Below are positions 5,480 to 49,300 of a stretch of DNA of 64,000 bases, one piece after another. Source of the stretch: an uncultured Candidatus Saccharibacteria bacterium (GTDB taxonomy: Bacteria > Patescibacteriota > Saccharimonadia > Saccharimonadales > 2-12-FULL-41-12); the NCBI GenBank assembly GCA_964615775.1, contig CAZTQB010000001.1, positions 60,599 through 124,598 on the forward strand, written 5' to 3'. The notes beneath the pieces are model-generated. The model did no database searches. It had not been told where the DNA came from and worked only from the letters and a program-made list of their open reading frames with translations. A program made the position numbers and the translations under genes. Each line of letters opens with the position of its first letter. Position 1 is the stretch's first letter.

Positions 5480-5525
5480 TCTTTGCTTTATCATAAATGT
5501 TAGTGAGCTGTAACCTCGCTAGAAA

Positions 5526-17602: not shown

Positions 17603-17610
17603 GACTTAAA

Positions 17611-18126: not shown

Positions 18127-18226
18127 AATAATATTATGTAGAATATCACAAGTTTTTATATATTTACATTGGTGTGGCTGATTAAAGTGCTGGAGATTAA
18201 TTGGATAATTATTTAAACTGTTTAGT

Positions 18227-18760: not shown

Positions 18761-18798
18761 GCAATTTTATTATCAGCATTTTTTGATAAAATTACAAA

Positions 18799-19359: not shown

Positions 19360-19411
19360 TTTTTAAAAACAAGTTTGAAATTATATAATGTAATTCATAC
19401 TTAATTCTCGT

Positions 19412-19496
19412 GCGGATGTGGTGGAATTGGTAGACACGCTAGTCTTAGGAACTAGTGCAGCAATGCGTGAAGGTTCAAGTCCTTTCATCCGCACCA
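19412..19496 (+). tRNA. tRNA-Leu (anticodon UAG), class II with long variable arm
   Basis: 85 nt, gcggatg...catccgc acceptor stem, anticodon stem ctagt/actag with loop cTTAGga (anticodon TAG), long variable arm, GGTTCAAGTCC T-arm and a 3' CCA encoded. Confidence 0.85.
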
Positions 19497-19500
19497 ACTA

Positions 19501-19536
19501 AAAAACCCGATTTTTGTCGGGTTTTTTAGTTTTTTA
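19501..19536 (+). terminator. Rho-independent terminator after tRNA-Leu
   Basis: aaaaaCCCGAtttttgTCGGGtttttt: GC stem followed by a T-run. Confidence 0.6.
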
Positions 19537-19656
19537 CACCCCAAGCAAATTATAAAAAAACAATATTGTAAAAAGAGTATATTTAGTGTATAAAGATTGT
19601 ATAAGAGACAAAAATATTAATATATAATTAAAAATATTCATATTTAAGGAGTAAAT

Positions 19657-33200: not shown

Positions 33201-34069
33201 TATTTGAGACCCGTACGCCTAAGGGTGAGGCTTTTCTTTCTGAAATTGCCGGAGAGGTTACAGTTTGGGAAGATGGAGATAATTACGTGATCCAGGTGAC
33301 TGGTGAAACTATCGACTCTGTTAAGCTGGCGTTAAACGATCGTACACCACAAGTGGCTCACAACTCTGAGGTGGCTGTTGGTGATGTTGTAGCATCTAAT
33401 GAGGGTGGCGAAGAGCCACTTATCTCACCAATCGCCGGCAAGATAAACTTAACTAAAAAGCATATTACTATCACCCCTGTTGGCCAAAGTGTTGTCAAAT
33501 ACGATGTACCGAGCTATAAGATACTAAGTGTTAAAGATGGTGACCAAGTTAAGGCAGGTCAAAGATTAACCAATGGTTCAATCAACATTCACGATCTTAT
33601 GACATTAAGCGGCGTAGAAGCAACTCAGCGTTATATAATGAACGAGATTTTGCGAATTTTTGCAAGTCAAGGTCAGTATATTGCCGACAAACACCTAGAG
33701 ATTATTGTTAGGCAAATGTTTAGTCGTGTGCAGATAGAAGACGCTGGCGATAGTAGCTTTGTTACTGGCGATATTGTTAGTAAATTGTCTGTAGCTGAGG
33801 CTAACGAGGAATTGGTGACTAATGGCAAAAAACCAGCTGTTGTTAATCAGTTACTACTTGGAATCACTAAAGCTTCCTTAAGTACTGACTCATTCTTGTC
33901 TGCAGCATCATTCCAGGACACAACCCGAGTGCTAATTTCTGCTGCTACCTCTGGCAAAGTCGATAAACTATTTGGCCTAAAAGAGAATGTTATTTTGGGT
34001 CGCAAAATCCCAGTTGGCACAGGCTACAATAAGGACGATACAGAGGGCCAAGAAGTACCTCAAGAGTAA
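30266..34069 (+). CDS. rpoC: DNA-directed RNA polymerase subunit beta'
   Basis: 1267 aa. Catalytic NADFDGDQM motif, zinc-binding N-terminus and trigger-loop region. ATGA overlap with the rpoB stop. Confidence 0.95.
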
Positions 34070-34186
34070 TTTGCTTATACTAGGCTAATCTGTTAGAATA
34101 AACTTTACAAACATTTAAGTAATCTGAGCCGTTCCCGGTTGGCATCCTGGGTCTGATGCAGTAGGTTACAAAATATAGGAGAATAA

Positions 34187-34600
34187 ATGCCAACAATCAA
34201 TCAACTAGTGCGTAAGCCTAGGAAAAAGGTGACTTCAAGCAGTAAGTCGCCAGCTCTTCACCGTGTGGTGAACAATCTAAAAACTAAAAACTACGAAAAA
34301 AATGCACCATTTAAGCGTGGAGTTTGCGTCAAAGTAACTACCAAAACGCCAAAAAAGCCTAACTCTGCCCTTCGTAAGGTGGCTCGTGTGCGTTTGCAGA
34401 ATGGCTATGAAGTTTGGGCTTACATTGGTGGAGAAGGCCACAACTTGCAGGAACACGCAGTAGTGATGATACGTGGCGGTCGAGTAAAAGATTTGCCTGG
34501 TGTACGATATCATATTGTTCGTGGTACATTGGACCTTCAGGGTGTAGCTGATCGTAAGCAAGGTAGAAGTAAATATGGTGCTAAGAGGGAGAAGAAATAA
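34187..34600 (+). CDS. rpsL: 30S ribosomal protein S12
   Basis: [14 protein letters not shown]...[13 protein letters not shown]...: canonical S12. Confidence 0.95.
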
Positions 34601-35079
34601 TGCCTAGAAAAGTAACCAAATCATTAGTTCGAGATATTCAGCCAGATCGTATGTACGATAGCGTAATGGTGCAGCGTCTGATCAACCGTGTCATGTTGAA
34701 CGGCAAGAAGCAAACAGCTGAAAAACTTGTATATAACGGCATGCAAGAAGCAGCCGACAAACTAAAAGTCAAAAACCCATTAGATGTTTTTGAACAAGCT
34801 ATGAAAAACGTTCAGCCACATGTAGAGACTCGCTCACGTCGTGTTGGTGGAGCTAACTATCAGATTCCTTTTGAAGTCAAAGGTCAACGCCAAAATCACC
34901 TAACATTAATGTGGTTTGTGCAGTCGGCACGCTCGCGTAAGGGCATGAGTATGCAAAGTCGCCTGGCTTTAGAGCTGATGGACGCTTACAATAACACTGG
35001 TACAGCTGTCAAAAAGCGTGAAGATGTTCACAAAATGGCTGAAGCCAACCGAGCCTTCGCTCACTTTGCTCGTAGTTAA
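34600..35079 (+). CDS. rpsG: 30S ribosomal protein S7
   Basis: 159 aa with an S7-like sequence (…GKKQTAEKLVYNGM…ANYQIPFEVKGQRQ…). It follows rpsL with a 1-nt overlap. Confidence 0.9.
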   Translation: MPRKVTKSLVRDIQPDRMYDSVMVQRLINRVMLNGKKQTAEKLVYNGMQEAADKLKVKNPLDVFEQAMKNVQPHVETRSRRVGGANYQIPFEVKGQRQNHLTLMWFVQSARSRKGMSMQSRLALELMDAYNNTGTAVKKREDVHKMAEANRAFAHFARS

Positions 35080-35372
35080 GCAGATTTTTTAGTAATAAAA
35101 CACGTAGGCAACTTTTTTAATTGTAAAAATACTTGCTTTATACTACGAAATATATATACGAAATATCAATATTTACGAAGTTTAGAAAATGTTGTATTCT
35201 TTTAATAGTCACAGGGGTGACTTAGTTTTGTGTTACATTCTTTCGATTAATAAACTTTAGGTGAGAGGAGCTTATAAACCGGAGGAATCTTCGGCTCTTT
35301 GGCATTGGCCAAAGGTGAACCCCGCACCTTAACAAACTGGTACAAAATAAAAATATTATAGGGGGTGAGCAA

Positions 35373-36845
35373 ATGAGTCCTGTTGATTTTGGAAAATTTC
35401 GTGGTCAACATAAAGAAGACAACGAAATTTCTAATCAACCCCATCAGGAGAAAGTCAGCCAGCACGAAGTACAAGTTCGTGTTCGTGATTGGTCGGAAGT
35501 CAACTCTGGGTCGAGACTAAAGTTCAATCGAGCAGAAGTCTCCAACAGGTTTACACATGCATTCAAGAAGCCTGGCTTTGTGGCTTGGGCATGCTTGTTC
35601 GGTGTAACTATTGTACTCTTGGCCGTGATTGCCCTGAGTGCTAGCACGATCATCAGTGCAGTTGCAATCATGCTAATGATTGCCGTAGTAACGTTTGGTA
35701 TCTATCGAGTTTATACTCGGAGCGAGGTACCAGACTTCGAAACTCCCATCGAGACGGTTTTGCCCGATCGAGGAGTCTCGAAGGTTCGCTACATGGTAAA
35801 TCGAAAGTTTGGGCGACCCGATATTGTTCCGAGTATCAACAAGGAGCAAGAGAGCGATATTTTCGAGCAGCGGATTAAGCTGCTTGAAGGCAGGATTCGC
35901 GATATCGTCAACCTTGGTGTCCACCCGAACATTTGGGTAGGCAACCAAAAAGGTAGCTCGGCGAAGTCAGTCATGGCAGTTATCATGGGTGAAATCTTGG
36001 CAGAAATCACTCGTCGAATTGTTGTGCTGCTCCCATCGTCTACCTCAACTCAGACTGCAACCGCAGGAAATTTGGCAGGTGTACGTGGTAAGACCCTAAC
36101 TTTGCGTCAGTATGCCACCAAATTGCAAGATGAAGAGATTAGCTTTCACGAGCTTTTTAAGATGGTTGCAGTAACCAAACACGGACTGCGTGTTATCTCT
36201 GAAGACACCATATCTAACGACAAGAGCAATTTCTCGAAGGTAAGATGGTTGAAAGTCCACTCGCATCTTCGAGAGAACGCAGAAATCATCATTTCCGATA
36301 CCGGGAATGATGATGCATATGCCTACACCGTGACTTCGGTTGCGATGAGGCAGTCTGACGTGGTGGTGGTTGCTGCAAACCGACTTATGAAGCAAACTTT
36401 GGAGTCGGCAGGAGCAACACTGGCGTACTATATGCACATGCAAAAAAACATTCGACAAGCAGTGGCAGGAGAAGGTCAAGCACTGGAAGGCGACTTGATT
36501 CCTGTCAGTGAAAAACTTGAGAATGCAGTCGTAGTGATGAATGCTTATGACCATGATGAAGGCAACGAGGAGTTTGTTTCTCGGCTCTCTAGTGGAATTA
36601 AGCTGTCAGGCGGAAATCCTTCGCTGTTCTCTAAGACAAGAGTATTTGGGGTGCAGGAAGATGATCATCTGTATGACACAGTTGAAGGGCTCGATTACAC
36701 TCAGATGGCTCGAGCAACATATTTCGACTATCTAGTAGTGATCGTTGCAGTATTTGAACAAGCAGCTCTGTTGCAAAAGGTCAAGGTTCCTAAGCGACAC
36801 TGGCTGATCAAGAACGTGGGCATTATTATGCCGTCGCCCTCGTAA
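35373..36845 (+). CDS. Island gene 1: membrane-anchored protein with degenerate P-loop (possible diverged coupling/ParA-like ATPase)
   Basis: 490 aa. Two N-terminal TM helices (FVAWACLFGVTIVLLAVIALSASTIISAVAIMLMIAVVTFGIY), then a ~400-aa soluble domain containing IWVGNQKGSSAKSVMAVIMGEI. This resembles a P-loop but is degenerate (QKGSSAKS versus GxxxxGKS). Confidence 0.45.
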   Translation: MSPVDFGKFRGQHKEDNEISNQPHQEKVSQHEVQVRVRDWSEVNSGSRLKFNRAEVSNRFTHAFKKPGFVAWACLFGVTIVLLAVIALSASTIISAVAIMLMIAVVTFGIYRVYTRSEVPDFETPIETVLPDRGVSKVRYMVNRKFGRPDIVPSINKEQESDIFEQRIKLLEGRIRDIVNLGVHPNIWVGNQKGSSAKSVMAVIMGEILAEITRRIVVLLPSSTSTQTATAGNLAGVRGKTLTLRQYATKLQDEEISFHELFKMVAVTKHGLRVISEDTISNDKSNFSKVRWLKVHSHLRENAEIIISDTGNDDAYAYTVTSVAMRQSDVVVVAANRLMKQTLESAGATLAYYMHMQKNIRQAVAGEGQALEGDLIPVSEKLENAVVVMNAYDHDEGNEEFVSRLSSGIKLSGGNPSLFSKTRVFGVQEDDHLYDTVEGLDYTQMARATYFDYLVVIVAVFEQAALLQKVKVPKRHWLIKNVGIIMPSPS

Positions 36846-36869
36846 GTATCTCCACTAAAAGGAGGAGAC

Positions 36870-37193
36870 ATGAGAAACCTCAAAATGTGGCTGAGCAGTT
36901 TGGTGATGATTTTGGTGCTGCCAGCTACCAGCTTGGCAATTAACACCAACCCCAAAGCACCGCCTGTGCTTGGACCAATTGGGCAGAACTGGGTGCAATG
37001 GGCAGTCTGGATTTTCATCGTCATTGCCCTGATCTTTGTCGGAATTGGCTTGCTTAAGTGGATTTCGGCGATCGGTAACGGTCGAAGCTCGGGACAAGCA
37101 ATTGCCATGATTGTGGCAGCCATCGTTGCCATAATCATTTTGTCCGACCTTCAGGGTTGGACGACACGACTCAGCCAGCTTTTCAGGCCGTGA
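36870..37193 (+). CDS. Island gene 2: small pilin-like membrane protein (VirB2/TrbC-like candidate)
   Basis: 107 aa. Signal peptide (…LVLPATSLA|IN) followed by two hydrophobic helices separated by a short loop. SD AAAGGAGGAGAC lies upstream. Confidence 0.4.
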   Translation: MRNLKMWLSSLVMILVLPATSLAINTNPKAPPVLGPIGQNWVQWAVWIFIVIALIFVGIGLLKWISAIGNGRSSGQAIAMIVAAIVAIIILSDLQGWTTRLSQLFRP

Positions 37194-37256
37194 GTCAATT
37201 TGGTGTCAGTCGCCTAGGTATCTTTGTCCTAGGCGACTAAACCATAGGAGAGAAAA

Positions 37257-37976
37257 ATGAATTTCAGAAAGCTGAGATGGTTTGTAGTGCCATTCGCTTT
37301 ATTGATGGTAATTGCAGTTGTGCTTGCGAATATTGACCATACGGTTACGCGAACGCAAACTATTACCAAAGATGCGAGTGGAAATACTGTCAGTAACCCA
37401 CCATCGCCTGTCGATCCTTCATCATCGAGTGTTGATGATGCACGTCGTTCGGCTGGCAATACGGTGGCGGTGTTGACATCGGCTTTTCTTTCACCTGAAG
37501 CGGACTTTCGTAATCAGGTGGATGAAGTTGCTACTCAGGAAACTGCCAGTCAACTTCGTAAGCTTTACTCTGGCTATGAAGCTGATGGTAAGCAGGTTCC
37601 TGCAGTAGGAGGAGATGCAATGGCAAAAAGCTTAGGGTACTCGTCTCTAGCTGATTTTCAGCAAAAAGGCAGGTATGACTTCCAAGCACTTCAGTACAAA
37701 GTCAAAAGTTTTGAAGCAGGAAAAAGTGCTGTGGTTGGTGTTTACGGCATCACAACCGTAATAACCAAGAAAAATCAGCGTTATTTTCAGCAGGATGTTC
37801 CATCGATCCAGATCTTGAGAATGGTTTGGCAAGATGGAAAGTGGCGTTATGACAAGCAACTTCGTCCACTAAAGGGTGAAGTACCAAGCTTCACAGAATC
37901 TGGCCAAAGTTTTACTCAGATTCTGGCGAAGTACAAGCTAGTCCTCGAGAATCAGAGGTACAAGACTTATGACTAA
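37257..37976 (+). CDS. Island gene 3: bitopic membrane protein (VirB8-like candidate)
   Basis: 239 aa. A single N-terminal TM (LRWFVVPFALLMVIAVVLANI), then a ~200-aa extracytoplasmic domain. Size and topology fit VirB8/TcpC-like proteins, with no sequence-level proof. Confidence 0.3.
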   Translation: MNFRKLRWFVVPFALLMVIAVVLANIDHTVTRTQTITKDASGNTVSNPPSPVDPSSSSVDDARRSAGNTVAVLTSAFLSPEADFRNQVDEVATQETASQLRKLYSGYEADGKQVPAVGGDAMAKSLGYSSLADFQQKGRYDFQALQYKVKSFEAGKSAVVGVYGITTVITKKNQRYFQQDVPSIQILRMVWQDGKWRYDKQLRPLKGEVPSFTESGQSFTQILAKYKLVLENQRYKTYD

Positions 37977-39093
37977 AACTCGTTGGCTCTCTAGCAGTTT
38001 GGTGATGCTTGTTTGCTTGTTCGGATTTATGAGCTGGCAAATGGCAAAACCAGACAAAGCTGGAGCAGATATCCTTGGGATTCCGACACCTTGTGATGTC
38101 ATTCCAAACCAAACCGCCTCCAACGTCTGTGGGGGGATCATTAATCCGATAGCTGGAGCCAATAATGTAATTGGTGCCATTCCGGGTGTGCCAAATCCGT
38201 CACAGATACCTGGCAAGGCGATTGGGAAAATAAAAGATGAAGTAGTTAGTCATACCGTTGAGCCAATGCTACGTGAAGTAGCTAAATTCTTTGGTATGGG
38301 AGTAATTTGGGGCTTGAAGATGGAAATCAAGTTCATCACACGAACAACATCACCGAACCTTAATGCTGCATGGTTCTCTGTGGCCTATCAGCAAATTCTT
38401 TGGCTTGCTTACATTTGGGCGTACATAGCCTTTATGTATCGGCTTGTAAAAGGAGCAAAAGAAGCGGATCTTGCTATCCACTTCTCCACATTCTTCAAAA
38501 TGGGAGTGTTTATTGCTCTCACAGGAGGAATGATGCTGACGGCAGCCTCTTGGCTGGTGACATTGGTAGACAAAAAACTCGTACCTGAACTCGCTGATGT
38601 AATGGGAGTTCAATTGGGCGATGTTATGAAAAACGTTGAGGGCTACCTCAACCAAATTATTGCTGGACAATTAGGCGTAGTAGCGGTACTGTTCACAATT
38701 TTTGTAATTGGAACAGTACTGTCTGGTGCAACGTTGTTTGTAATGGTATTTCGTTATATGTTTATACCATTACTGATCCTTGCTGCTCTATTCGCGTTAG
38801 CTCATAGCATCGGCGAAGAATCATGGGACAGGGCTAAAAAGGCCTTCTTGACCATCGGAGCTTGGATCGCATTTCCTGCAATATTGCTGTTTGTACTACA
38901 GTTGGGACTAGCTATGACATTAGAAGCCAATGATGCATTTACCACAATGATCATTCTATGTGCCACAACTGTGATGCCTTTGATCATCGGTATTTGGGCA
39001 ATCAAGAAAATCAGTGGTGCTGATTTCAAGGTTGAACCAGTCAAGCGAGCCGTGATTGCTCGTGCCTATTACACTAAGTTCAGGTCGAGTTAA
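37969..39093 (+). CDS. Island gene 4: polytopic membrane protein (VirB6/TrbL-like candidate)
   Basis: 374 aa. Signal/TM1, a ~70-aa extracellular loop, then about 6 further TM helices. Confidence 0.45.
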   Translation: MTKTRWLSSSLVMLVCLFGFMSWQMAKPDKAGADILGIPTPCDVIPNQTASNVCGGIINPIAGANNVIGAIPGVPNPSQIPGKAIGKIKDEVVSHTVEPMLREVAKFFGMGVIWGLKMEIKFITRTTSPNLNAAWFSVAYQQILWLAYIWAYIAFMYRLVKGAKEADLAIHFSTFFKMGVFIALTGGMMLTAASWLVTLVDKKLVPELADVMGVQLGDVMKNVEGYLNQIIAGQLGVVAVLFTIFVIGTVLSGATLFVMVFRYMFIPLLILAALFALAHSIGEESWDRAKKAFLTIGAWIAFPAILLFVLQLGLAMTLEANDAFTTMIILCATTVMPLIIGIWAIKKISGADFKVEPVKRAVIARAYYTKFRSS

Positions 39094-39152
39094 TGATTAA
39101 CCGTTCAAGGGTAAAGGCATGGATGCCTTCAACTAATGTTGGGAGGTGAGAA

Positions 39153-40727
39153 GTGTCTGAGCGACATCCGATTGAAAAAGAGCGTGGAATTCGAATTGTT
39201 GGGTCGCTAAGGCTCGATCATTCCACGATCTTTGCAGTTGTGCTGGTTGTAATCCTTTTGGTGCTTTTGCAGATTGTACCATTTGGAATATGGCTAGGCA
39301 TTACGTTTCTGGCAGCTGCTTTTTGGGGACTGCTAGTTTATGTCCCAGTTTCCAGAGACGGCAAACCGCTCCTCGCAATCCTCTATCGAAGGGCGAATTT
39401 TGACCTCGGTCAGAATGAGTTTTTCGACAAACGAGTCGAACGAGGAGAAAACTTCGAACTAACTAAACGTGCTAAGCGTGAATTCGCTAAGCGTTTGGGC
39501 AAGTTAGAACTTGTTCCATTTGAGATTTCGGGACAGAAGCTGTGCATTTATGATGATAAGCGAGATGAGACTTACACGTTCGTTGTGTATGTCAAAATCA
39601 GCTCTCTCTTCAATGCCAGCTCGCAAGAACGAGAATACCGTACAGAAGCATTTTCGAAGTTGCTCGATGTTGTAAAGAAGCATGAATTTTACCGATTCTC
39701 TTGGCAGGTGCAAGTTTTGCCAGGAGAAGCATTGAATCTTCGTTCAGAACGAGAAACAATGCTTAAGGTTAATGATCTAGTGAATAATAAATCAGACAAA
39801 GTCCACCAATTTATCGATGCTTACGAGCAAAAGATAATGGAACTGTCGTCTGAGAGAGTGGTGTCTCTACGGTTTACTGTCAAAAAAGATGATCCTCGAA
39901 TTAGGCACGCTCGCAAAAAGACAAAAATTACGACTGGCGAGTTTTTGTACAATCTCGTTGGTCAACTTGCCGATGAAGTAGGCCTGACCGATAGTCTGGC
40001 TAACAATCCATTTGGCATAAGTCAAGTTGATGCCCACACTTACAATGAGTCAGTTATGGACATCGGTCTGTTACTAGATCAAGTTTCAAAACTGCCTTTG
40101 GTTAGGGAGATGCGTAAGACTGGTATTCTCGAGCAATCTGACAAGCAAATTGATGAAAAGCTCGGTTTACCGACAGTCTGCGGTTTTGAAGCGAATCATG
40201 CCTGGCTCGGTGAAACGGTTCATATGAGCTTTTTCATCGAAAGTCTCTCCGAGTACGGATTGACGCCCACAGAATTTTTGTGGTTGATGAACCTCAGTAA
40301 TGAAGAAGGGCAGTCTGCAAAAGTAATTCCTTTGACTGTGACTGCTGTATATCAGCCAGTTTCACGGTCATCGACCAGTCGTATCTCGAGGTTCAATCGT
40401 AATACGACCAGCTCTATCATCGCCGACAAGCAGCTAGCTGGTTCAGCGGTGGATGCAGATCTGCAACGTGAGGCAGAATTGGCGAAACAAAAAACCATTC
40501 GGTTGGCATCGAGCCGTTCTGAATCACTTCGGATGAGAGTGTATGTTTCACTCCAAGGCAGTTCCGTCGAAGAAGTTACTGCCAATGCTGAGATTCTTCG
40601 CTCGACCGCAGCTAGGAATAACTGCAGTGTGCAAGGTCTTACGCTTAGGCAGTACGAAGGTGTATCTGTTGTGTTGCCCCTTGGACGTGGCCTCGCAGCT
40701 TTGAACTTCAAGGGAGTTTTCAAATGA
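39153..40727 (+). CDS. Island gene 5: VirB3-like TM pair fused to VirB4 N-terminal-domain-like region (candidate)
   Basis: 524 aa. GTG start 6 nt after GGGAGGTGAGAA. Two N-terminal TM helices, then a large soluble domain. It sits immediately upstream of the VirB4-type ATPase domain gene. Confidence 0.4.
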   Translation: MSERHPIEKERGIRIVGSLRLDHSTIFAVVLVVILLVLLQIVPFGIWLGITFLAAAFWGLLVYVPVSRDGKPLLAILYRRANFDLGQNEFFDKRVERGENFELTKRAKREFAKRLGKLELVPFEISGQKLCIYDDKRDETYTFVVYVKISSLFNASSQEREYRTEAFSKLLDVVKKHEFYRFSWQVQVLPGEALNLRSERETMLKVNDLVNNKSDKVHQFIDAYEQKIMELSSERVVSLRFTVKKDDPRIRHARKKTKITTGEFLYNLVGQLADEVGLTDSLANNPFGISQVDAHTYNESVMDIGLLLDQVSKLPLVREMRKTGILEQSDKQIDEKLGLPTVCGFEANHAWLGETVHMSFFIESLSEYGLTPTEFLWLMNLSNEEGQSAKVIPLTVTAVYQPVSRSSTSRISRFNRNTTSSIIADKQLAGSAVDADLQREAELAKQKTIRLASSRSESLRMRVYVSLQGSSVEEVTANAEILRSTAARNNCSVQGLTLRQYEGVSVVLPLGRGLAALNFKGVFK

Positions 40728-40803
40728 TTTTATCAAAGTTTACTCAACATAAACTAAAGATAAAATCGACCTCTTAACCTAAAAACGAGGGAGGTGAGAA
40801 GAA

Positions 40804-42156
40804 TTGGCTATTGATAAAAGCCATCTTGCACGAATTGTTAGCGGTGATACTTTGCCGACTTTTCGTGAAATGACCGAAGACCTAGCTCCTGTCAATCCGC
40901 TGTGTCTGGAACACGGATTTATCAATCCTAAAACTGGGCAAAAATTGATTGGCGTACCTCTGGGTATTGCTGGTCTCGGTGGAATAGCGGGTAACTTTGA
41001 GTTTTGTGAGTACACCGCCCATCAGGCTGATCCTGAAACGGCGTTTTCGCTAAACTCGATTGTCTTTGGACAAACAGGCTATCGCAAGTCATCTGGAGAA
41101 AAAATAAGAATTTTGCGTGATACTTTGCTTTTTTCACGCAACTATCTGGTCACTGATCGAAAGGGTGAGTACCGTGTGCTAGCGGGATACATCGACGGTG
41201 CAAAAGTCCTTAACTTCAGTGACAATGCTCAGTACTTCATTAATCCTTTGGACCCTGTCATGGGACTAGATGCTCAATTGGAGCTACTGACTGCATTGAT
41301 TGTAACCGCAGGAAAACACTTCACTCAGGGGCTTACACCACTGGAGAATACTCTCTTGTGGAACTCGATTATCGAATGTCACAATTCCCCTGGGATAATA
41401 GGTATTCCGACTTTGCCGAGCTTGATCGAAAAACTCCGAAACCCTTCTGCTAGTACAGTCGAAGATTTGAGTGTCGGAAATATCGATGATATCAACAAGC
41501 TTAGTGCAAATCTCAGATTGACGCTCGAACGTCTATCTGAAAAAGGTAATCTTGCTGGAATGTTTCACAAACCAACGACGCCAGGGCTTTTTGATGCAGT
41601 GCCGTTGCTGGTTCTAGACTGTGAGGGACTTGATGGCGAGAAAGCGGTTGTAATGACCACTCTCATCAACTTCTTTACTCTCGAAAAAAATGCAAAATCA
41701 TCTTCAGATAACAGGTTTCATCACGTTATCCATGATGAATCGTGGGACCTTGCAGCATACAGCGGATTTGTCAGTTCGGTGAGGCGGGCCTATAAGCTCG
41801 GACGGAGCAAAGGTTTTGGTAACCGAATGGTGGTTCACCATTGGCAAAACCTTATTCGATCTGCTACATCTCAGATCGAAGACATCGCCAGTGACACCTC
41901 ATTGGTTATCAGTTATCGGCAAAACCGAGCTGAACTTGAAGCTAGTTCACATCTGTTTGGGTATACAGATAATGAAATTGAAAGGATTGTAAAACTTCCT
42001 CAAGGCCATGCTCTGTATAAGTTCACTACTGGCAACATACCCGCACTCGAGGTGCGATATGTAGCCATGCCGTGGGAGATTCCGCTGCTCGAAACAAGCC
42101 ACCTCGTTAAGGGCAAAAGCGGACTTTCATCAAGTGAACTGGCGTCAACTTCCTAG
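40804..42156 (+). CDS. Island gene 6: VirB4/TrbE-family ATPase C-terminal domain
   Basis: 450 aa. TTG start 9 nt after GGAGG. P-loop-like IVFGQTGYRKSSGEK (aligns with VirB4 GxTGxGKS but has Arg at the second conserved Gly) and Walker B/VirB4 signature LLVLDCEG...HHVIHDESWDLA (DEAW-type). Confidence 0.6.
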   Translation: MAIDKSHLARIVSGDTLPTFREMTEDLAPVNPLCLEHGFINPKTGQKLIGVPLGIAGLGGIAGNFEFCEYTAHQADPETAFSLNSIVFGQTGYRKSSGEKIRILRDTLLFSRNYLVTDRKGEYRVLAGYIDGAKVLNFSDNAQYFINPLDPVMGLDAQLELLTALIVTAGKHFTQGLTPLENTLLWNSIIECHNSPGIIGIPTLPSLIEKLRNPSASTVEDLSVGNIDDINKLSANLRLTLERLSEKGNLAGMFHKPTTPGLFDAVPLLVLDCEGLDGEKAVVMTTLINFFTLEKNAKSSSDNRFHHVIHDESWDLAAYSGFVSSVRRAYKLGRSKGFGNRMVVHHWQNLIRSATSQIEDIASDTSLVISYRQNRAELEASSHLFGYTDNEIERIVKLPQGHALYKFTTGNIPALEVRYVAMPWEIPLLETSHLVKGKSGLSSSELASTS

Positions 42157-42168
42157 GGTTGAGATATC

Positions 42169-43287
42169 ATGTCCCATAAAAATGGAAGTGAAGCACTAAA
42201 AGCAGGTATAGTGGGGTGGCTAATTGGAGTGATTGGTTTTCCAGTCATTCTGATGTCAGTAGGTGTGGTATCGATAGTTATGTTTGTCTTAATGATCGGC
42301 AGTAGCACTATGTCGGCTGGTGGATGTGCCACAGCAGTTACTGGCGATAATAATACCCAGAAGACGTACAACTATCTTATGCAGTCTGAGTTCGATCTCA
42401 AACCTTTTCAGGCGGCTGCGATTGTCGGTAACTTCATCCACGAAAGTGGTGGAGATCCACTCAAAACTAACAATCCCAACCCAACTTCAGGTGCTGTGGG
42501 GATTGCACAGTGGCTAGGTAGTCGGCAAACAGCTCTTAAGGCTCACAACTACCAAGGCAAAACCTGGACTGATATTGATTTTCAGTTAGACTTCATGAAG
42601 TCTGAACTCTTTGGAGGCTGGAAATCTGCACTTATTGCGGTCAGACGCTCTACTACAATTGAAGAGGCAACCGTAATATTTGAGAAAATATATGAAGTAT
42701 CAGGCGACACTGGATCGTATCCTAAGAGAATTAAAAACGCCAAAAACGTTTTAGAAAAATATGGAAAAAGTGCATCCAGCAATCTAGGATGTGTAAGTGT
42801 CGCAGTAAGTGGTACACTTACTGATCCTGGCAAAGGTCCTCAAAACCCCAAGACCGGCTTAGTGCCTCGATCAGAAAATCTTCAAAAATTTATTTTTGCT
42901 AATTGGGGATGCGAGAAGCTTCACGGTACACCATGTATTCGTGAAATTGGCGGATACAGTGTTCGTCCTGCTGGTACTCCGCAGGATCACACTCTCGGTC
43001 TGGCTCTTGATATTACAGTTAGTGACGGAATCGGTAAGTACCCGTCGCCAACGGAGCAATCCCTGGGTTGGCAAATTGCCTGCTTTCTGGCAAGTAACGC
43101 TAGTAAAGTAGGTGTCAGGTATCTTATTTGGCAAGGTAAAATCTGGAATGTTACTCGTCTTAACGAAGGCAATTCAGCCGCTTGTCAACTAGGAACAGGG
43201 TGGCGTCCATACACCTACGGATATGGTGTAACTGAAGGTCATTATGACCACGTACATGTCACTGTTCAGCCTGGAGTGGGTGGTTAA
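42169..43287 (+). CDS. Island gene 7: membrane-anchored two-domain peptidoglycan hydrolase (lysozyme-like + LAS/M15-like peptidase)
   Basis: 372 aa. N-terminal TM (LIGVIGFPVILMSVGVVSIVMFVLMIG). A lysozyme-like domain with FQAAAIVGNFIHESGGDP...GAVGIAQW (CwlT/phage-tail-lysozyme-type signature). A C-terminal domain with DHTLGLALDI (HxxGxAxD) and TEGHYDHVHV (ExxH / HxH), typical of LAS-superfamily (VanY/M15-like) zinc peptidases. Confidence 0.65.
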   Translation: MSHKNGSEALKAGIVGWLIGVIGFPVILMSVGVVSIVMFVLMIGSSTMSAGGCATAVTGDNNTQKTYNYLMQSEFDLKPFQAAAIVGNFIHESGGDPLKTNNPNPTSGAVGIAQWLGSRQTALKAHNYQGKTWTDIDFQLDFMKSELFGGWKSALIAVRRSTTIEEATVIFEKIYEVSGDTGSYPKRIKNAKNVLEKYGKSASSNLGCVSVAVSGTLTDPGKGPQNPKTGLVPRSENLQKFIFANWGCEKLHGTPCIREIGGYSVRPAGTPQDHTLGLALDITVSDGIGKYPSPTEQSLGWQIACFLASNASKVGVRYLIWQGKIWNVTRLNEGNSAACQLGTGWRPYTYGYGVTEGHYDHVHVTVQPGVGG

Positions 43288-43749
43288 GATGAGGCCAACC
43301 TCCTCTAGGACCAATCAAAATCAAAAAGGAATCACAAGACACAAACGAAAACGTACTAACAGGTTGGAGTTCCTATCTTCGTCTAGAGTTCCAGTTGAAA
43401 TATTTATATATATTATCAACTGTCGAGCCAGACCAAAGATTGCGGATTCGCCACCAAAAAGGAACTTTTTTGTCCACCTACGTGGACGACTAAGTTCAGC
43501 GTCCGGCTTTAGTCGAGTGCCAAAACTAGCTCTTTAAAAAGAGCAGCCATTAACACTCGACTTTAGCCAGTAAGGCTTTGAGTAGAATGCTAGCAGAATT
43601 GTTAGACTTTCCTCGCCAAATTTATGGCTCTAAATATTTCAGATGCTGGTCTCGCTCCCGAGATCTCCTGACATATTTAGTGCCTTTTGCTACATAAATG
43701 TGTATTTATGCTGATGATTCCAAAAGGATGAAAGCAAAAATTAAGCTGT

Positions 43750-44706
43750 TTAGTAGTTTTTACGCCGACCAAATCGGCTACGAAAATCTCCGTCAGATAA
43801 TAATGCAGCTATACCTACAACTAATATAATCGAAACTACGCCTCCTAGACCAATTCTCTCGAAAAAGTTACCTACACCGCTTAGAGGGTTGCGATTGTTA
43901 GTGTCGTAGGGTTGTCTGCCTTCGAAGGCGGCATCGTCAATCAATAGGCGTCTAGATGATATCTGTGGGTTTACGGCTGAAGAACCAGCAGGACATAGCT
44001 GACTATCAACAGCTGATTTTATAAAATTAATATTCTGCTTAGACATTCTGGTTGGGTCGCGGTGCATATAGCCGCTGTCTTTTGTCGCTCGACGGAAGTT
44101 AGTGCGATATTTCTCGGTAGTCGATATGTGGTCTTCATTTAAAATTACTGGCAAGAACGGATTACGGCTCTCAGAGTTCCTGAAAATAATTGTTGAAACA
44201 CTTGGTTTTAGTGGCCGAGTAATCGCACCATTACTCTTAGTGCAGGCGGTTGTACTTACACTGAGTGTTTCAACGCTGTTATTACCTGCTGCTAAATCAT
44301 CGTTTAAAACACGGGCAATATTAAAATTAGATAAAACTACCGAACGACCAGAGTTTTTCTTAAGATTGGCAGCTAAGAGTTCAGAGAATGTTTGCCCTGC
44401 CAAAGCAGACTCAGCCTCAGTCGAAGTTTTAGATTTTGGTTGGTCATCACCGCAAGACTTAATTGCCCCAAAAATAGCTAAACTGCCAATTAAAACAGAG
44501 GTCCCGATAAGTAATGTTAGTTTATTTCGTTCGTAAAAACTCTTGTCGGAGTCTTCTAGTACTACTTGAGGCTTCCGATATTCGTCGTAAGTAGCGTTTG
44601 TGGCTTCATTATTCTCTAGATTCTCTGGCGGAAAGATCTTGTTGTCATGACTTTTTTCATTATCAGACTCTTTATTTGTCATAATAATATATTTTACGCT
44701 CAGCAA
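43750..44706 (-). CDS. Hypothetical membrane protein (TM near both termini)
   Basis: 318 aa. Acidic N-terminal cytoplasmic region, a TM (LTLLIGTSVLIGSLAIFGAI), a ~230-aa S/T/N-rich extracytoplasmic region and a C-terminal TM (GLGGVVSIILVVGIAALL). Composition is AT-rich like the host. Confidence 0.45.
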   Translation of the reverse strand: MLSVKYIIMTNKESDNEKSHDNKIFPPENLENNEATNATYDEYRKPQVVLEDSDKSFYERNKLTLLIGTSVLIGSLAIFGAIKSCGDDQPKSKTSTEAESALAGQTFSELLAANLKKNSGRSVVLSNFNIARVLNDDLAAGNNSVETLSVSTTACTKSNGAITRPLKPSVSTIIFRNSESRNPFLPVILNEDHISTTEKYRTNFRRATKDSGYMHRDPTRMSKQNINFIKSAVDSQLCPAGSSAVNPQISSRRLLIDDAAFEGRQPYDTNNRNPLSGVGNFFERIGLGGVVSIILVVGIAALLSDGDFRSRFGRRKNY

Positions 44707-44813
44707 ATATAATTGTATATTATTTAATTTACAACAGCCGTTTAGCTATTAACCATTTTGTGGTAAAATTAGGTAAAGTATTATTAAAATTTATTTGAAA
44801 AGGGATATTAAAC

Positions 44814-46895
44814 GTGGCAAAAGTAGACATTAACAAACTCCGAAATATTGGAATCATTGCCCATATTGATGCAGGTAAGACAACGACTACCGAAGGTATT
44901 TTGTATCGAACTGGCCTAAAGCACAAAATTGGAGCTGTGCATGAGGGTGAAACTACAACTGACTGGATGGCTCAGGAACGTGAACGAGGTATCACTATTG
45001 TGTCAGCGGCGGTTACTTGCCACTGGAGAGATCATCAGATTAACATCATTGATACACCCGGTCACATCGATTTTACAGTAGAAGTGCAACGTAGTTTGCG
45101 AGTGCTAGATGGAGCAATTACGGTGTTTGACGGTAAAATGGGTGTCGAATCTCAATCAGAAACTGTTTGGCGACAAGCTGACAGCTACAACGTGCCGCGT
45201 ATTTGTTTTATTAACAAAATTAACCAAACTGGTGGCGATTTTTATAAGTCGCTTGAATCAATCCACAATCGTCTTAGCAAGCGAGCTTTTCCGATCCATT
45301 TGCCGATTGGCTTTGAGCAGTCCGTTAATGGAATTGTCGATCTAGTAAGTATGAAATCGTACACTTATAAAGATTTTACAGACAAAGAGCTGGTTGAAGG
45401 AGAAATCCCGGCTGATATGCTTGAAGAGGCTAAACGTTACCGAAGTTTGCTTATCGAGAATGCTGTTGCAGAAGATGAAGCTATGCTTGAAAAATACCTA
45501 GAAGTTGGCGAAGAAGGCATGAGTGAAGAAGACATTCGTTCAAGTATTCGTTCAGCAGTGCTAACTGGTGCATTTTTCATCGTAACTGGCGGTGATGGTC
45601 GAGGTGTAATTGTAGAGAAGTTGCTAGATATTGCTACCGAATACCTACCAAGTCCACTTGACAGAGGCTCTAACTGGGGTACACACCCCAAAACTGATGA
45701 AGAAGTCGAACGAAAGCCGTCTGAGAGTGAGCCACTAGCTGGCCTAGCCTTCAAGATTACGACTGACCCATTTGTTGGCAAGTTGGCTTATTACCGAGTT
45801 TATTCTGGCAAGCTAACTGCCGGAAGCTATGTTTTGAACAGCTCGACTGGCGAAAAAGAGCGAATTGGCCGAATTGTTCGCATGCAAGCTGATAAGCGAG
45901 AGGAAGTTAGCGAAGTGGTGGCTGGCGATATTGCTGCTATCGTCGGACTTAAAAATACCACTACTGGTAACACGCTGTGCGACCAAAACAACCCAATAAT
46001 CTTAGAGAGCATCACCTTCCCAGAGCCACCAGTAAGTATTGCTATCGAGCCAAAAACTAAGTCTGACCAAGAAAAAATGAGCCTGGCTTTGCAACGACTA
46101 GCCGAAGAAGACCCAACTTTTCGGGTAAACGTCAATGACGAAACTGGTCAAACTATCATCTCTGGTATGGGTGAATTACACCTTGAAATTTTAGTAGATC
46201 GCATGAAGCGAGAGTTCTCAGTAGAAGCAAATATAGGTCAGCCACAGGTCGCTTATCGTGAAACTATCCGTAAGGACGCTGTAGAAGTAGAAGGTAAGTT
46301 TGTTCGTCAGAGTGGTGGTCGTGGTCAGTATGGCCATGTTTGGCTACGCCTTAGCCAGAATGAAGCAGGTAAGGGCTTCGAGTTTATCAACTCTATCAAG
46401 GGTGGAGTTGTGCCTGGTGAGTATATCAAGCCGGTTCAGCAAGGAATTGAAGAGGCTATGAGTAATGGTGTTGTAGCTGGTTACCCGGTAGTCGATATTA
46501 AAGCAGAATTATATGATGGTAGTTACCACGACGTTGACTCTTCAGAGATGGCCTTTAAAATTGCTGGATCAATGGCTCTACAAGATGGTGTCAAGAAAGC
46601 TAGTCCAGTTTTGCTGGAGCCAATTATGAAGGTAGTAGCAGTAACTCCAGAAGAATTTATGGGTGATGTAATTGGTTCATTGAACTCAAAGCGTGGTCGT
46701 ATTGAAAGTATGGACGACCTTCAGAATGGTGTTAAGCAAATTACCGCTTTTGTACCACTGGGTGAGTTATTTGGTTATACTACAGAGCTAAGAAGCTCTA
46801 CCCAGGGTCGAGCTAGTTCGTCAATGGAGCTAGATCACTATGCCGACGTACCGCCAAATGTTGCCGAAGCTATAATTGCCAAAAACGGCAAATAA
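44814..46895 (+). CDS. fusA: Elongation factor G
   Basis: GTG start. [27 protein letters not shown]...DTPGHIDF... Full five-domain length (693 aa). Confidence 0.95.
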
Positions 46896-46901
46896 AAGCA
46901 C

Positions 46902-49106: not shown

Positions 49107-49300
49107 TTTTCTCCTTCTTAGCCTCTTAATAGAGAGTATATCATTATATTTACAAACTAAATTGTTAGCTATGTTACATTTAATATCTTTACATGGAGTA
49201 CTAAAATAGGTTAATATATCTCGGTAACATATGTGTGCCTTTAGTTTTGCCTTGGCTACGCATATTTTAATAACAATAATTAATTTTAAGGAGCTAAATA

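Follow-up and report, generated by a model that had tools for sequence, protein, structure and literature searches.

A gene block between rpsG and fusA

The ribosomal-operon genes rpsG and fusA are normally adjacent. In the stretch analysed here (the window, 64,000 nucleotides of contig CAZTQB010000001.1 from an uncultured Candidatus Saccharibacteria bacterium) they lie 9.7 kb apart, which raises the question of what the intervening genes encode, where they come from and how they reached this site. The block is probably an actinobacterial-type cassette resembling a type IV secretion system (T4SS), self-contained and passed horizontally between genomes, which in one Saccharimonadales lineage was inserted between rpsG and fusA. 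The locus is framed by the following genes:

34187-34600, + strand: rpsL (translation; Pfam Ribosom_S12_S23 on identical or near-identical genes)
34600-35079, + strand: rpsG (translation; Pfam Ribosomal_S7 on identical or near-identical genes)
43750-44706, - strand: gm, 318 aa (mechanical ORF call; an internal ATG may be the start)
44814-46895, + strand: fusA (EF-G), GTG start (translation; Pfam families on the L005 homologue)
46902-49331, - strand: otsA-otsB fusion (Pfam; mechanical ORF, the likely start lying further in)
49301-50485, + strand: tuf, downstream of the otsA-otsB fusion

Seven intact co-oriented ORFs (35373-43287, + strand) follow rpsG, as a preliminary description of this DNA had noted. 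Its figure of about 8.6 kb for the interval was too short, since rpsG ends at 35079 and fusA starts at 44814, and it had missed an eighth gene, gm, on the minus strand. The gm product is a membrane protein with two transmembrane (TM) helices that matched no family in Pfam or NCBIfam; the gene is host-like in composition, diverges in step with the flanks, and is present in genomes L005 and L011 and absent from L028 and L030.

The latter two, related Saccharimonadales (S7 91% and RpoC 82-86% identical to the window), display the order rpoB-rpoC-rpsL-rpsG-small ORF-fusA-tuf with nothing else in between, and homology to them stops at 35072-35079 and is back at approximately 44835. The comparison confirms that the operon is split and supports the block as an island when measured against the ancestral order of rpsG next to fusA, with rpsL-rpsG and fusA as its left and right ancestral flanks. 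The operon had been described as intact from fusA to tuf, but the otsA-otsB fusion (Glyco_transf_20, E = 5e-164; Trehalose_PPase, E = 5e-48) lies between them; it is absent from this position in L028 and L030 and constitutes a second interruption of the str operon.

Composition of the cassette

The block was proposed to be GC-rich and compositionally distinct, and this was upheld by several measures. Its GC content is 0.446 versus 0.406 for the window, and the mean GC3 of its seven genes is 0.44, versus 0.32 +/- 0.04 for the 44 other window genes; the top five GC3 ranks among the 51 genes all belong to the cassette (Mann-Whitney p = 5e-6), and tetranucleotide distance reaches its window maximum there, approximately 3 sd over the mean. 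The second gene carries the highest GC3 of the window (0.61), and the seventh is host-like (0.354). In all nine cassette loci compared, GC exceeds that of the host, by 2-19 points over each flank (0.45-0.62 versus 0.35-0.52).

These values bear on the reading of the arrangement as an old one passed on vertically, its higher GC content reflecting amino-acid composition or expression-linked codon bias, or else as an artefact of assembly or binning in which foreign DNA was fused to a Saccharibacteria contig. The excess in the window is indeed modest (4-5 points), many cassette proteins are membrane proteins, and all comparison sequences are metagenome assemblies. On the other hand, the excess is seen at third codon positions and amounts to 6-19 points, depending on the flank, in other genomes, while relatives carry empty sites. 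Thus relatives do not uniformly hold the block here, nor is its composition host-like, and together with the exchange data below this makes such a reading very improbable. A further argument, that strong ribosome-binding sites and GTG/TTG starts set the block apart, is weak: only the fifth (GTG) and sixth (TTG) genes fit it, both with GGGAGGTGAG, while GTG is also the start codon of fusA, and the Shine-Dalgarno sites of rpsL and tuf are ordinary.

Predicted products of the seven genes

The cassette genes, named g1 to g7, are all on the plus strand:

35373-36845, +: g1, 490 aa, MinD/ParA/FleN fold by AF2 and Foldseek
36870-37193, +: g2, 107 aa, pilin-like by topology and family alignment
37257-37976, +: g3, 239 aa, bitopic by topology
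37969-39093, +: g4, 374 aa, polytopic by topology
39153-40727, +: g5, 524 aa, GTG start, VirB4 N-domain-like by sub-cut-off NCBIfam matches
40804-42156, +: g6, 450 aa, TTG start, VirB4 ATPase domain-like by profile match to PDB 4AG5
42169-43287, +: g7, 372 aa, predicted cell-wall hydrolase by Pfam PF18013, and PF26571 on identical or related genes

In the g1 product a disordered N-terminal region is followed by two TM helices at 69-117 and, from approximately 157 to 475, by a domain of MinD/ParA/FleN fold. Its AF2 model (mean pLDDT 68) matches FleN, MinD and ParA in a Foldseek search of the PDB (E = 1.8e-8, probability 1.0, TM-target up to 0.78), weak Pfam matches to AAA_31 and CbiA were also obtained, and g1 is thus predicted to be a membrane-anchored MinD/ParA-fold protein. 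The degenerate P-loop that had been pointed out is present, drifted to KGSSAKS with K193, G194, S196 and K198 invariant; the DTGNDD motif is conserved, and the g1 homologues of L001 and of a Curtobacterium plasmid retain the canonical KGGxGKT.

A signal peptide and two TM helices are predicted for g2, and of eight family members one gave a Pfam match to T4SS_pilin (E = 0.0047) and one a match to TraA (E = 3.6e-4), both sub-threshold, suggesting a VirB2/T4SS-pilin-like small protein. For g3, the bitopic topology (an extracytoplasmic domain preceded by a TM helix at the N-terminus) stood, but the VirB8-type label was not confirmed: Pfam, NCBIfam and PDB sequence searches yielded no match, the single-sequence AF2 model (pLDDT 40) was too low for use, and g3 is placed at the position of a VirB8-type subunit by gene order. 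Similarly, g4 is polytopic as claimed, with at least five TM helices and an N-terminal extracytoplasmic part carrying invariant C42 and C54, but VirB6 homology was not recovered in Pfam or the PDB, and its VirB6-like placement likewise follows gene order.

The reading of g5 and g6 as VirB4-related was borne out. An N-terminal TM hairpin in g5 is followed by a VirB4 N-terminal domain (SCO6880/TrsD-like), with NCBIfam matches, all below curated cut-offs, to SCO6880_fam (E = 8e-9), VirB4_plasma (profile 29-456 of 894, E = 4e-6) and CD1110 (profile 233-363 of 752, E = 2e-4), the segments being collinear with the N-terminal parts of these models. A g6 profile built from 14 homologues matches PDB 4AG5, the Thermoanaerobacter VirB4 C-terminal domain, over almost its full length (E = 1e-10), and g6 also matches CD1110 positions 415-554 (E = 1e-6). 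Thus g6 is predicted to be a VirB4 C-terminal ATPase domain, and g5 and g6 a split VirB4 in which the membrane anchor and N-domain precede the ATPase. K95, S96, D311, E312 and W314 of g6 are invariant; its Walker A motif reads GQTGYRKS (K and S kept, R for the second G) and its Walker B motif HDESW. Since the Walker A motifs of both g1 and g6 are off consensus, their ATPase activity is uncertain.

In agreement with the hydrolase assignment, g7 carries an N-terminal TM anchor, a Phage_lysozyme2 domain at 62-198 (PF18013, E = 7e-28) and a second C-terminal domain, whose HTLGLALD ... DHVH motifs and match to PDB 9FLH (E = 1e-6) suggest a LAS-type metallopeptidase; it is thus a predicted membrane-anchored cell-wall hydrolase (lysozyme). 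The TM topologies predicted for the cassette proteins fit T4SS roles, and families and topology together support the proposal of a minimal Gram-positive-style T4SS gene set.

Relation to actinobacterial and canonical Saccharibacteria systems

T4SS-like genes do occur in Saccharibacteria, as the preliminary description stated: T4SSs without a relaxase have been published for Saccharibacteria and Patescibacteria, and uptake or host-directed transport has been speculated to be their role (PMC12102498, PMC10633639, PMC11665869). In broad terms, the cassette is thus a system of a known kind. It could accordingly be asked whether it is simply the canonical, essential T4SS of these organisms, fast-evolving and relocated, with no separate actinobacterial-type acquisition. 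The canonical system also lacks relaxase and T4CP, and the Southlakia locus includes a TrsD-like protein beside VirB4, a VirB6 homologue, pilins, and lysozyme/peptidase genes directly 3' of virB4, a TrsD-VirB4-lysozyme/peptidase order common to the cassette (PMC12102498, PMC10633639). The Patescibacteria VirB4 clade is moreover nested in MPF_FATA, alongside Actinobacteria.

The canonical locus (SEML1_0006-0019), however, adjoins dnaA and the replication origin and holds an array of approximately six pilins, whereas the cassette lies elsewhere and has one pilin-like gene plus a MinD-like gene. VirB4 is present in approximately 80% of 3,035 Patescibacteria genomes, whereas the g6 family was found in 17 clusters among 5.8 billion proteins and in 2 of 185,579 species representatives. 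When 1.84 billion representatives were scanned with HMMER, the approximately 50 best matches had a low-GC amino-acid composition; the next 100 or so, likewise of 400-500 aa, are GARP-rich, and those named are Actinomycetota. Outside the family itself, the best matches therefore resemble Actinomycetota and not low-GC Patescibacteria. With the foreign composition of the cassette at all nine loci, these data leave a relocated canonical system improbable.

The acquisition of an actinobacterial-type cassette is favoured by gene order. Each cassette gene has its counterpart, in collinear order, in the mating-pair-formation (Mpf) module of an actinobacterial conjugative plasmid, Curtobacterium D03a, whose order is CbiA/ParA protein, T4SS_pilin, bitopic, polytopic, SCO6880-family, ATPase and a 355-aa protein. 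The syntenic partners of g1, g2 and g5 pass the CbiA, T4SS_pilin (E = 6.6e-8) and SCO6880_fam thresholds, respectively, and the g4 family profile matches its partner with E = 1e-10. For every profile from g1 to g6 the syntenic partner scored best, although only 14 plasmid proteins were compared and the matches are weak except for g4 and g6. A tblastn search of 72,556 plasmids with g6 gave 74 matches, nearly all in Actinomycetota (Streptomyces 41, Arthrobacter 6, Rhodococcus 4, and others). The g6 ATPase thus appears closest to Actinomycetota proteins, at approximately 25% identity, a remote link.

Exchange of the cassette between genomes

In other Saccharibacteria, five or more different chromosomal contexts carry the seven genes in unchanged order; the insertion sites thus number at least six, the str-operon position among them. 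The preliminary description regarded this position as the striking feature; the compositional contrast it named is real, but the site is not singular, and more striking is the exchange of the whole cassette between species at fixed crossover zones:

35305-35342: left crossover zone, 37 nt identical across all three haplotypes
42362-42385: right crossover zone, at the g7 boundary between TM anchor and lysozyme domain

On the left, L011 and L012 differ from the window up to approximately 35305 and are identical to it beyond, while L024 is identical up to approximately 35340 and divergent to the right. On the right, L011 is identical up to approximately 42372-42385 and divergent beyond, and L005, L006 and L008 are divergent up to approximately 42360 and identical beyond. 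Both exchanges therefore use the same two zones, and only the first 65 or so codons of g7 lie within the exchanged segment.

In the comparison with another species (L011), flanks are approximately 80% identical with saturated synonymous sites (pS = 0.73 for rpoC and 0.60 for rpsG), and the cassette shows 5 differences in 7,077 nt (99.93% identical). Within the species (L024, L005, L006), flanks are 99-100% identical (dS = 0.008 for rpoC and 0.028 for fusA), and the cassette allele is only 55-78% identical, its proteins 61-78% (pS 0.63-0.79). Cassette and flank divergence are thus discordant in both directions, and the cassette is therefore horizontally exchanged rather than a vertical heritage. 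The alignments show replacement as a 7-kb unit through homologous recombination within the genus, with two conserved edges that map to the cassette's own leader and to the start of the g7 lysozyme domain.

Regarding an assembly artefact, the left junction of the window lies within a stretch of 37 nt that both other haplotypes have in common, in principle short enough to be bridged by a k = 31 assembler; the right junction is beyond k = 31 chimerism because the other two haplotypes share less than 30 nt there. Moreover, Logan assemblies of at least four independent runs contain the same junctions, on contigs that extend into rpoBC and fusA-tuf. In the literature we found no description of the actinobacterial-type cassette or of its allele switching.

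Transfer apparatus or exchanged channel

Downstream of its Mpf genes, Curtobacterium D03a encodes VirD4 and a MobF relaxase, both of which the cassette lacks. It could nevertheless be an active, self-moving conjugative apparatus, with relaxase and coupling protein elsewhere or unrecognisable, and the near-identical copy in a second species a product of self-transfer. Collinearity with the module of a plasmid carrying VirD4 and MobF, the multiple insertion sites with persistent foreign composition and the 99.93% identity across species would fit, as would the T4CP-like gene (DUF8128 with TrwB_AAD_bind) that adjoins the cassette in L002, L018 and L019, and VirD4 homologues are common in Patescibacteria, mostly distant from virB4 (PMC12102498). 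Yet, as had been remarked for relaxase, integrase and att repeats, block searches detected none of these, nor a tRNA, flanking repeats or a coupling protein; for relaxase, T4CP and integrase this holds for the whole 64-kb window. The T4CP-like gene of L002 and L018 is host-like in GC and outside the GC-rich unit, and the exchanged segment ends within g7 and the leader, as expected of homologous crossovers and not of element ends. Saccharibacteria are naturally competent, and transformation would suffice to explain the exchange (PMC10633639). We thus regard self-transfer as unlikely.

For the exchanged actinobacterial-type cassette, we suggest that it corresponds to the Mpf half of a conjugative plasmid or ICE of actinobacteria, with the half for DNA processing (coupling protein and relaxase) missing. 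Its conserved upstream control region and seven genes occupy different chromosomal sites in different Saccharibacteria. Natural transformation followed by homologous recombination would be the simplest account of DNA entry. The machine probably builds a channel across the envelope, or else a short pilus, that would serve in contact with the actinobacterial host rather than in classical conjugation, and allele switching would reflect selection on host or partner specificity.

The upstream control region

The region 5' of g1 contains the following elements:

35239-35345, +: control region, aligned across cassette versions
approximately 35239-35249, +: boxA, TTCTTTCGATT
35279-35294, +: hairpin CCGGAG-GAAT-CTTCGG, 5-6 bp (RNAalifold)
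35324-35335, +: boxB, GCACCTTAACAA, overlapping a -35-like TTAACA

No Rfam family matched this region, and RNAalifold supported the hairpin alone, with no covariation. A promoter-like match lies at 35329-35357. The control region is conserved upstream of the cassette and travels along with it, and can be aligned even across versions whose proteins are only 19-40% identical. BoxB is present in one copy per cassette locus, always 5' of g1, and has no further occurrence in the window or in the other loci.

Organization and composition of the rpsG-fusA interval

The closest named relatives of the ribosomal protein S7 encoded in the window are 'Candidatus Saccharimonadales', and the organism is therefore a Saccharibacterium. 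A block of seven genes (g1-g7, the cassette) separates rpsG from fusA in its str operon, with the coordinates and gene count that the preliminary description had reported; that description recognized a single break in the operon, whereas three were found. The region is organized as follows:

26715-30269, rpoB
30266-34069, rpoC
34187-34600, rpsL
34600-35079, rpsG
293-nt spacer between rpsG and g1
35373-43287, g1-g7, seven intact, co-oriented ORFs
462-nt spacer between g7 and gm
43750-44706, minus strand, gm
44814-46895, fusA, with a GTG start
46902-49331, minus strand, otsA-otsB fusion
49301-50485, tuf, followed by the S10 operon

The remainder of the window carries housekeeping genes, including those for aminopeptidase N, an acyltransferase, NusA and a class A PBP. 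The cassette had been described as compositionally distinct, and GC, GC3 and tetranucleotide analyses all agree on this point. Its GC content is 0.446 versus 0.406 for the window, the mean GC3 of g1-g7 is 0.44 versus 0.32 +/- 0.04 in the 44 other genes, and the five highest GC3 values among 51 genes belong to g2, g1, g5, g4 and g6 (Mann-Whitney p = 5e-6). The strand-symmetric tetranucleotide distance also reaches its maximum on the cassette, at 0.021 (mean 0.0115, sd 0.0029). The GC3 of g7 (0.35) is host-like, which fits the recombination map described below, where the right crossover falls inside this gene. A contrast in translation signals had likewise been proposed, but it is weak: g5 (GTG) and g6 (TTG) carry GGGAGGTGAG with a non-ATG start, but the other cassette genes do not, and the flanking genes, said to differ, include fusA with its GTG start as well as rpsL and tuf with normal Shine-Dalgarno sites. 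Promoter and terminator scans gave counts at shuffle expectation.

The cassette encodes components of a T4SS-like machine

The VirB4-family ATPase, the only universal T4SS protein, is represented by g6. In a family profile built from 14 homologues, positions 55-424 align with chain residues 13-387 of the Thermoanaerobacter VirB4 C-terminal ATPase domain (4AG5; E = 1e-10), and the Walker A K-S and Walker B DExW residues are invariant in the family alignment. When g6 is searched alone, its Pfam and NCBIfam matches are all sub-threshold; it matches positions 415-554 of the CD1110 family. The second glycine of Walker A is replaced by Arg in the g6 clade. We considered whether this substitution is evidence of a dead ATPase and do not take it as such, RKS and AKS variants being present in actinobacterial relatives too.

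Three collinear matches would place g5 at the N-terminal side of the same protein family: SCO6880_fam (E = 8e-9, 35 bits for a cut-off of 60), the N-terminal 450 residues of VirB4_plasma, a mycoplasma VirB4 (E = 4e-6), and positions 233-363 of CD1110 (E = 2e-4), the latter two also below their curated cut-offs. A TM hairpin, a candidate VirB3-like membrane anchor, is predicted at its N-terminus, and a sequence search of the PDB gave no match for g5. Together, g5 and g6 appear to constitute a split VirB4.

Among the remaining proteins, g7 carries a TM anchor followed by a Phage_lysozyme2 domain (E = 7e-28), as expected of a cell-wall hydrolase of the VirB1/CwlT type. Its second, C-terminal domain matches PDB entry 9FLH (E = 1e-6), and its motifs H-x3-G-x-A-x-D and D-H-x-H make it a putative LAS-type peptidase. 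The hydrolase module that lies past the crossover differs by cassette version, consisting of a lysozyme combined with either PF26571 or a GDSL lipase, or else of a protein bearing an SLT-like motif. The AF2 model of g1 (pLDDT 68) shows two TM helices and a domain of the FleN/MinD/ParA type (Foldseek E = 1.8e-8, TM-target up to 0.78). Its P-loop reads KGSSAKS, while KGG(S/T)GKT is kept in more distant cassette versions and in a plasmid homologue, so that 'degenerate' was a fair term for it.

The g2 protein combines a signal peptide with two TM helices; the Pfam scan gave no T4SS_pilin match for the window protein itself, while sub-threshold matches occur in its family, to T4SS_pilin (PF18895; E = 0.0047) in one of eight members and to TraA (E = 3.6e-4) in another. 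Topology prediction makes g3 bitopic and gives g4 five or more TM helices. The tentative labels VirB8 (NTF2-like fold) for g3 and VirB6 for g4 derive from topology and position. Neither protein matched anything in Pfam, NCBIfam or the PDB. Scanning every family member against Pfam was equally unproductive (for g4, the protein alone and nine family members), and the g3, g4 and g5 family profiles found nothing meaningful among PDB sequences. The single-sequence AF2 model of g3 (pLDDT 40) was too poor for use.

The DNA-processing half is missing from the cassette and the window

The preliminary description reported no relaxase, integrase or att repeats at the block, and tblastn, ORF and repeat searches bore this out. 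Plasmid VirD4, a MobF relaxase and two Saccharibacteria T4CP-like proteins gave no tblastn match below E = 0.1 in the 64-kb window, and no cassette protein matched a coupling-protein or relaxase family in Pfam or NCBIfam. No recombinase was found among all ORFs of at least 95 aa in 35080-44813; direct repeats flanking the cassette are just short chance repeats, and no tRNA target lies nearby, the sole tRNA of the window being at 19412. An IMG/VR scan revealed no viral carrier.

In one lineage of the comparison loci, which come from other assemblies, a T4CP-like protein is encoded directly downstream of the cassette (L002, 12945-15569; L018, 12017-14659; L019, 13144-15786, minus strand). This protein of ~875 aa, with DUF8128, DUF87 and TrwB_AAD_bind, has host-like GC and is absent from the window; it could be a partner of the cassette or a coincidental neighbour.

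Relationship to actinobacterial conjugation modules

A tblastn search of 72,556 plasmids with g6 gave 74 matches at ~25% identity, almost exclusively in Actinomycetota, while g5 gave none. One of these plasmids, D03a of Curtobacterium sp. MCBD17_003 (NZ_CP126276.1), carries the following genes:

gene 1, CbiA/ParA protein, passing the Pfam threshold
gene 2, 104-aa T4SS_pilin, passing threshold (E = 6.6e-8)
gene 3, 243-aa bitopic protein
gene 4, polytopic protein, unannotated
gene 5, SCO6880-family protein, passing the NCBIfam cut-off
gene 6, ATPase ('ATP/GTP-binding protein')
gene 7, 355-aa protein
downstream of gene 7, VirD4, a DUF4913 protein and a MobF relaxase

When profiles of the Saccharibacteria versions of g1-g6 were searched against 14 plasmid proteins, the syntenic partner was the best match in all six cases, with E-values of 7e-26 for g6, 1e-10 for g4 and up to 0.012 for g2; g7 had no detectable homologue among the 14. 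The cassette agrees with the split-VirB4 Mpf module of actinobacterial plasmids and ICEs in the order of its seven genes and in their sizes (a pilin-like protein of ~105 aa, a bitopic protein of ~240 aa, a last protein of ~360 aa).

The nearest relatives of the cassette ATPase outside its own family are likewise from Actinomycetota. A HMMER scan of 1.84 billion representatives yielded 3,125 relatives, of which the best ~50 representative clusters have a Saccharibacteria-like amino-acid composition and the next ~100 are GARP-rich and, like g6, 400-500 aa long; the sole organism-named cluster among the latter is from Actinomycetota and includes intein-bearing forms. An intein with a LAGLIDADG homing endonuclease lengthens some of the Actinomycetota proteins related to the VirB4 C-domain ATPase (P0051, P0172-P0185) to ~895 aa.

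Unlike D03a, the cassette is chromosomal, resides in a different phylum and lacks the VirD4 coupling protein, the DUF4913 protein and the MobF relaxase. Pairwise identities are only ~25% or undetectable, the seventh gene is without detectable homology, and g1 and g6 carry drifted P-loops. The synteny with D03a, the Actinomycetota relatives and the missing T4CP and relaxase together argue that the cassette derives from a conjugation system of actinobacterial type, of which it comprises the mating-pair-formation half and lacks the DNA-processing half.

Insertion into the str operon and at other sites

Two empty-site relatives (L028 and L030; S7 91% and RpoC 82-86% identical to the window) show the order tig-clpP-...-rpoB-rpoC-rpsL-rpsG-(79-103 aa ORF)-fusA-(small ORF)-tuf-rpsJ. 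The block is absent from their rpsG-fusA interval, and the cassette, gm and otsAB are all absent from this str-operon stretch. Homology to the window ends at the rpsG stop codon and restarts 20-30 nt inside fusA. The ORF of 79-103 aa (L028, 10620-10931; L030, 10625-10864), which has no Pfam match, fills the rpsG-fusA spacer and overlaps the fusA start; it has no counterpart in the window.

Elsewhere, the same seven genes occur in the same order between a TPR gene and the gene for the T4CP-like protein (L002, L018, L019), after nusA in L022, a genome that shares M1-acyltransferase-nusA synteny with the window, and in three further contexts (L001/L016, L020, L021). In the window itself nusA is followed by a 512-nt AT-rich spacer (5015-5525), the site equivalent to the one that holds the cassette in L022. 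NusA is 79% identical between L022 and the window and the cassette proteins are 25-40% identical, a contrast that does not settle the matter, given the faster evolution of envelope proteins.

The GC content of the cassette exceeds that of its flanks in nine of nine loci (0.45-0.62 versus 0.35-0.52, the downstream flank of L011, at 0.486, being a separate GC-rich block), and the window is among the least extreme for this excess. Genome and metagenome scans returned two and three loci, respectively; the rarity of the cassette is partly a search artefact, since a single strict peptide pattern was used.

A conserved leader precedes g1

A leader of ~110 nt (window 35239-35345) is conserved among cassette versions whose proteins are just 19-40% identical, and is also present upstream of g1 in L001, L002, L016, L018, L020, L021 and L022. 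It comprises the following elements:

boxA, TTCGTTCGATT-like
hairpin, CCGGAN(4-8)TCCGG
boxB, GCACCTTAACAA, overlapping a -35-like hexamer

Each cassette locus has a single boxB, with no further copy elsewhere in the window or in the other loci retrieved. A structured, riboswitch-like RNA was considered and judged less likely: an Rfam scan of 34000-45000 gave no match, and RNAalifold supported only the hairpin, with 5 bp shared, no covariation and a fold z-score of -1.5. Given so weak a structural signal, we read the leader as a promoter/operator region, probably the cassette's own. Nor is there a second copy of the leader motifs downstream of g7, which would be expected of integron- or att-like ends.

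Exchange of the cassette between and within species

Three haplotypes of the rpsG-fusA cassette locus are found in public assemblies: that of the window, that of a second species (H2; L011/L012, SRR1335562x), and that of same-species contigs with another cassette allele (H3; L024 for the left side and L005, L006 and L008 for the right side, ERR106433xx). H2 is ~80% identical to the window across the rpoBC-rpsLG flanks (RpoC 93% identical in amino acids, pS 0.73), whereas from ~35305 to ~42385 only 5 of 7,077 positions differ; beyond the right crossover, identity drops to 68-88% across g7 and gm. H3 shows the reverse pattern, with 99-100% identity to the window on either side (29810 to ~35340 and ~42362 to 49965; rpoC dS 0.008, fusA dS 0.028) and only 55-78% inside the cassette, where proteins are 61-78% identical and synonymous sites are saturated.

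Both exchanges have two crossover zones in common, a 37-nt stretch in the g1 leader and ~25 nt of g7 where the TM anchor gives way to the lysozyme domain. An assembly origin of these junctions was weighed. They recur in contigs from several runs. For the right junction, the other two haplotypes share too short a stretch for a k = 31 chimera to form. At the window's left junction such a chimera is conceivable in principle; even so, a genome joining allele A to a window-type right flank must exist (L004).

The cassette behaves as a swappable unit. A parallel is provided by capsule and O-antigen loci, which switch type by homologous recombination at conserved flanks. As in those loci, members of one species carry highly divergent alleles at the locus, different species share near-identical ones, and crossovers fall in conserved sequence at both edges; the difference lies in the cargo, which is a polysaccharide pathway there and a secretion machine here. 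The simplest mechanism of exchange would be DNA uptake followed by homologous recombination, with the conserved leader as the homologous sequence at the left crossover. Saccharibacteria are documented to be naturally competent (PMC10633639).

Relationship to the canonical Saccharibacteria T4SS

T4SS genes of monoderm (MPF_FATA) affinity and without relaxase have been described in Saccharibacteria, with effector delivery or DNA/nucleotide uptake as speculated roles (PMC7427843, PMC10633639, PMC11665869, PMC12102498, PMC12857230). This canonical system, of the Southlakia/TM7x type (Quinonero-Coronel et al. 2025, Wang et al. 2023, McLean et al. 2020), occupies SEML1_0006-0019 in Southlakia epibionticum, near dnaA, with ~6 divergent pilins (PMC10633639, PMC12102498, PMC7427843). 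It is the only T4SS described in Saccharibacteria, is essential, and its function is stated to be 'completely unknown' (PMC11665869).

The cassette resembles it as a monoderm, MPF_FATA-related set at a locus without relaxase or T4CP, with a TrsD-like protein beside VirB4 and with pilin-like and VirB6-position proteins. The order TrsD-VirB4-lysozyme/peptidase is common to both, hydrolase genes following virB4, and the carrier of the canonical system is likewise an epibiont of Actinobacteria. In contrast to the canonical system, which is nearly universal in the class, dnaA-proximal and equipped with an array of ~6 pilins, the cassette is rare, is found in the rpsG-fusA interval or, in relatives, at five other sites away from dnaA, and has one pilin-like gene plus a MinD-like gene; it is also GC-richer than every host and exchanged between species. 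The canonical side of this comparison is drawn from published descriptions, and the cassette may, though less probably, be a divergent canonical system.

The canonical T4SS is present in ~80% of Patescibacteria genomes, and the paper reporting this figure placed 49 of 2,474 VirB4s outside the Patescibacteria clade, seven of them with bacterial MPF_FATA, and read the 49 as occasional independent acquisitions. The cassette fits such acquisitions, or may have escaped the published VirB4 profile altogether. Our literature search found no description of this actinobacterial-type, MinD-containing cassette, of its persistent GC-rich composition at many sites, or of its interspecies exchange as a whole.

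The observation in the preliminary description was thus largely confirmed and its interpretation supported in part. Judged from its sequence, the cassette is probably a T4SS-like machine of a known superfamily, a relaxase-less derivative of an actinobacterial Mpf in a new host phylum. A more specific scenario, which we consider rather unlikely, is that a second machine beside the canonical T4SS was captured from the conjugation apparatus of the host phylum, Actinomycetota, and circulates among epibionts as an integrase-less cassette with its own control region, its alleles switching in a serotype-like manner and setting the host cells available for docking or feeding. A second T4SS cassette akin to the conjugation machinery of actinobacteria would document exchange with the host phylum in concrete genetic terms; earlier work saw no evidence of such exchange (PMC7427843). 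The cassette may bear on how Saccharibacteria recognize and exploit actinobacterial hosts: flank-isogenic strains with cassette alleles just 61-78% identical in protein offer a natural experiment for host range and, as Saccharibacteria are transformable, the alleles could be swapped deliberately.

Other genes interrupting the operon near the cassette

The gm ORF, which lies between the cassette and fusA, encodes a protein of ~310 aa with two TM helices that matches no family. All three haplotypes carry gm, whose divergence is in step with the flanks, and the empty-site relatives lack it. In L011, gm is followed not by fusA but by a GC-rich block (15931-21093; GC 0.50-0.55 versus ~0.43), the contig ending before any fusA. 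Among its five or six genes without Pfam matches, one encodes an SLT-like motif (GAESHFGT) and another a LAS-peptidase-like sequence (HPAGLAADISV...NHLHLSV). This suggests that the site downstream of rpsG accumulates envelope-related islands. More modestly, the str operon is itself a permissive insertion site in reduced genomes.

The otsA-otsB fusion between fusA and tuf, host-like in composition, encodes trehalose-6-phosphate synthase and phosphatase (Glyco_transf_20, E = 5e-164; Trehalose_PPase, E = 5e-48). The mechanically called ORF overlaps the tuf start, and the true start is therefore probably the internal MSLLESGQ...; the homologue in L005 was called at 734 aa.
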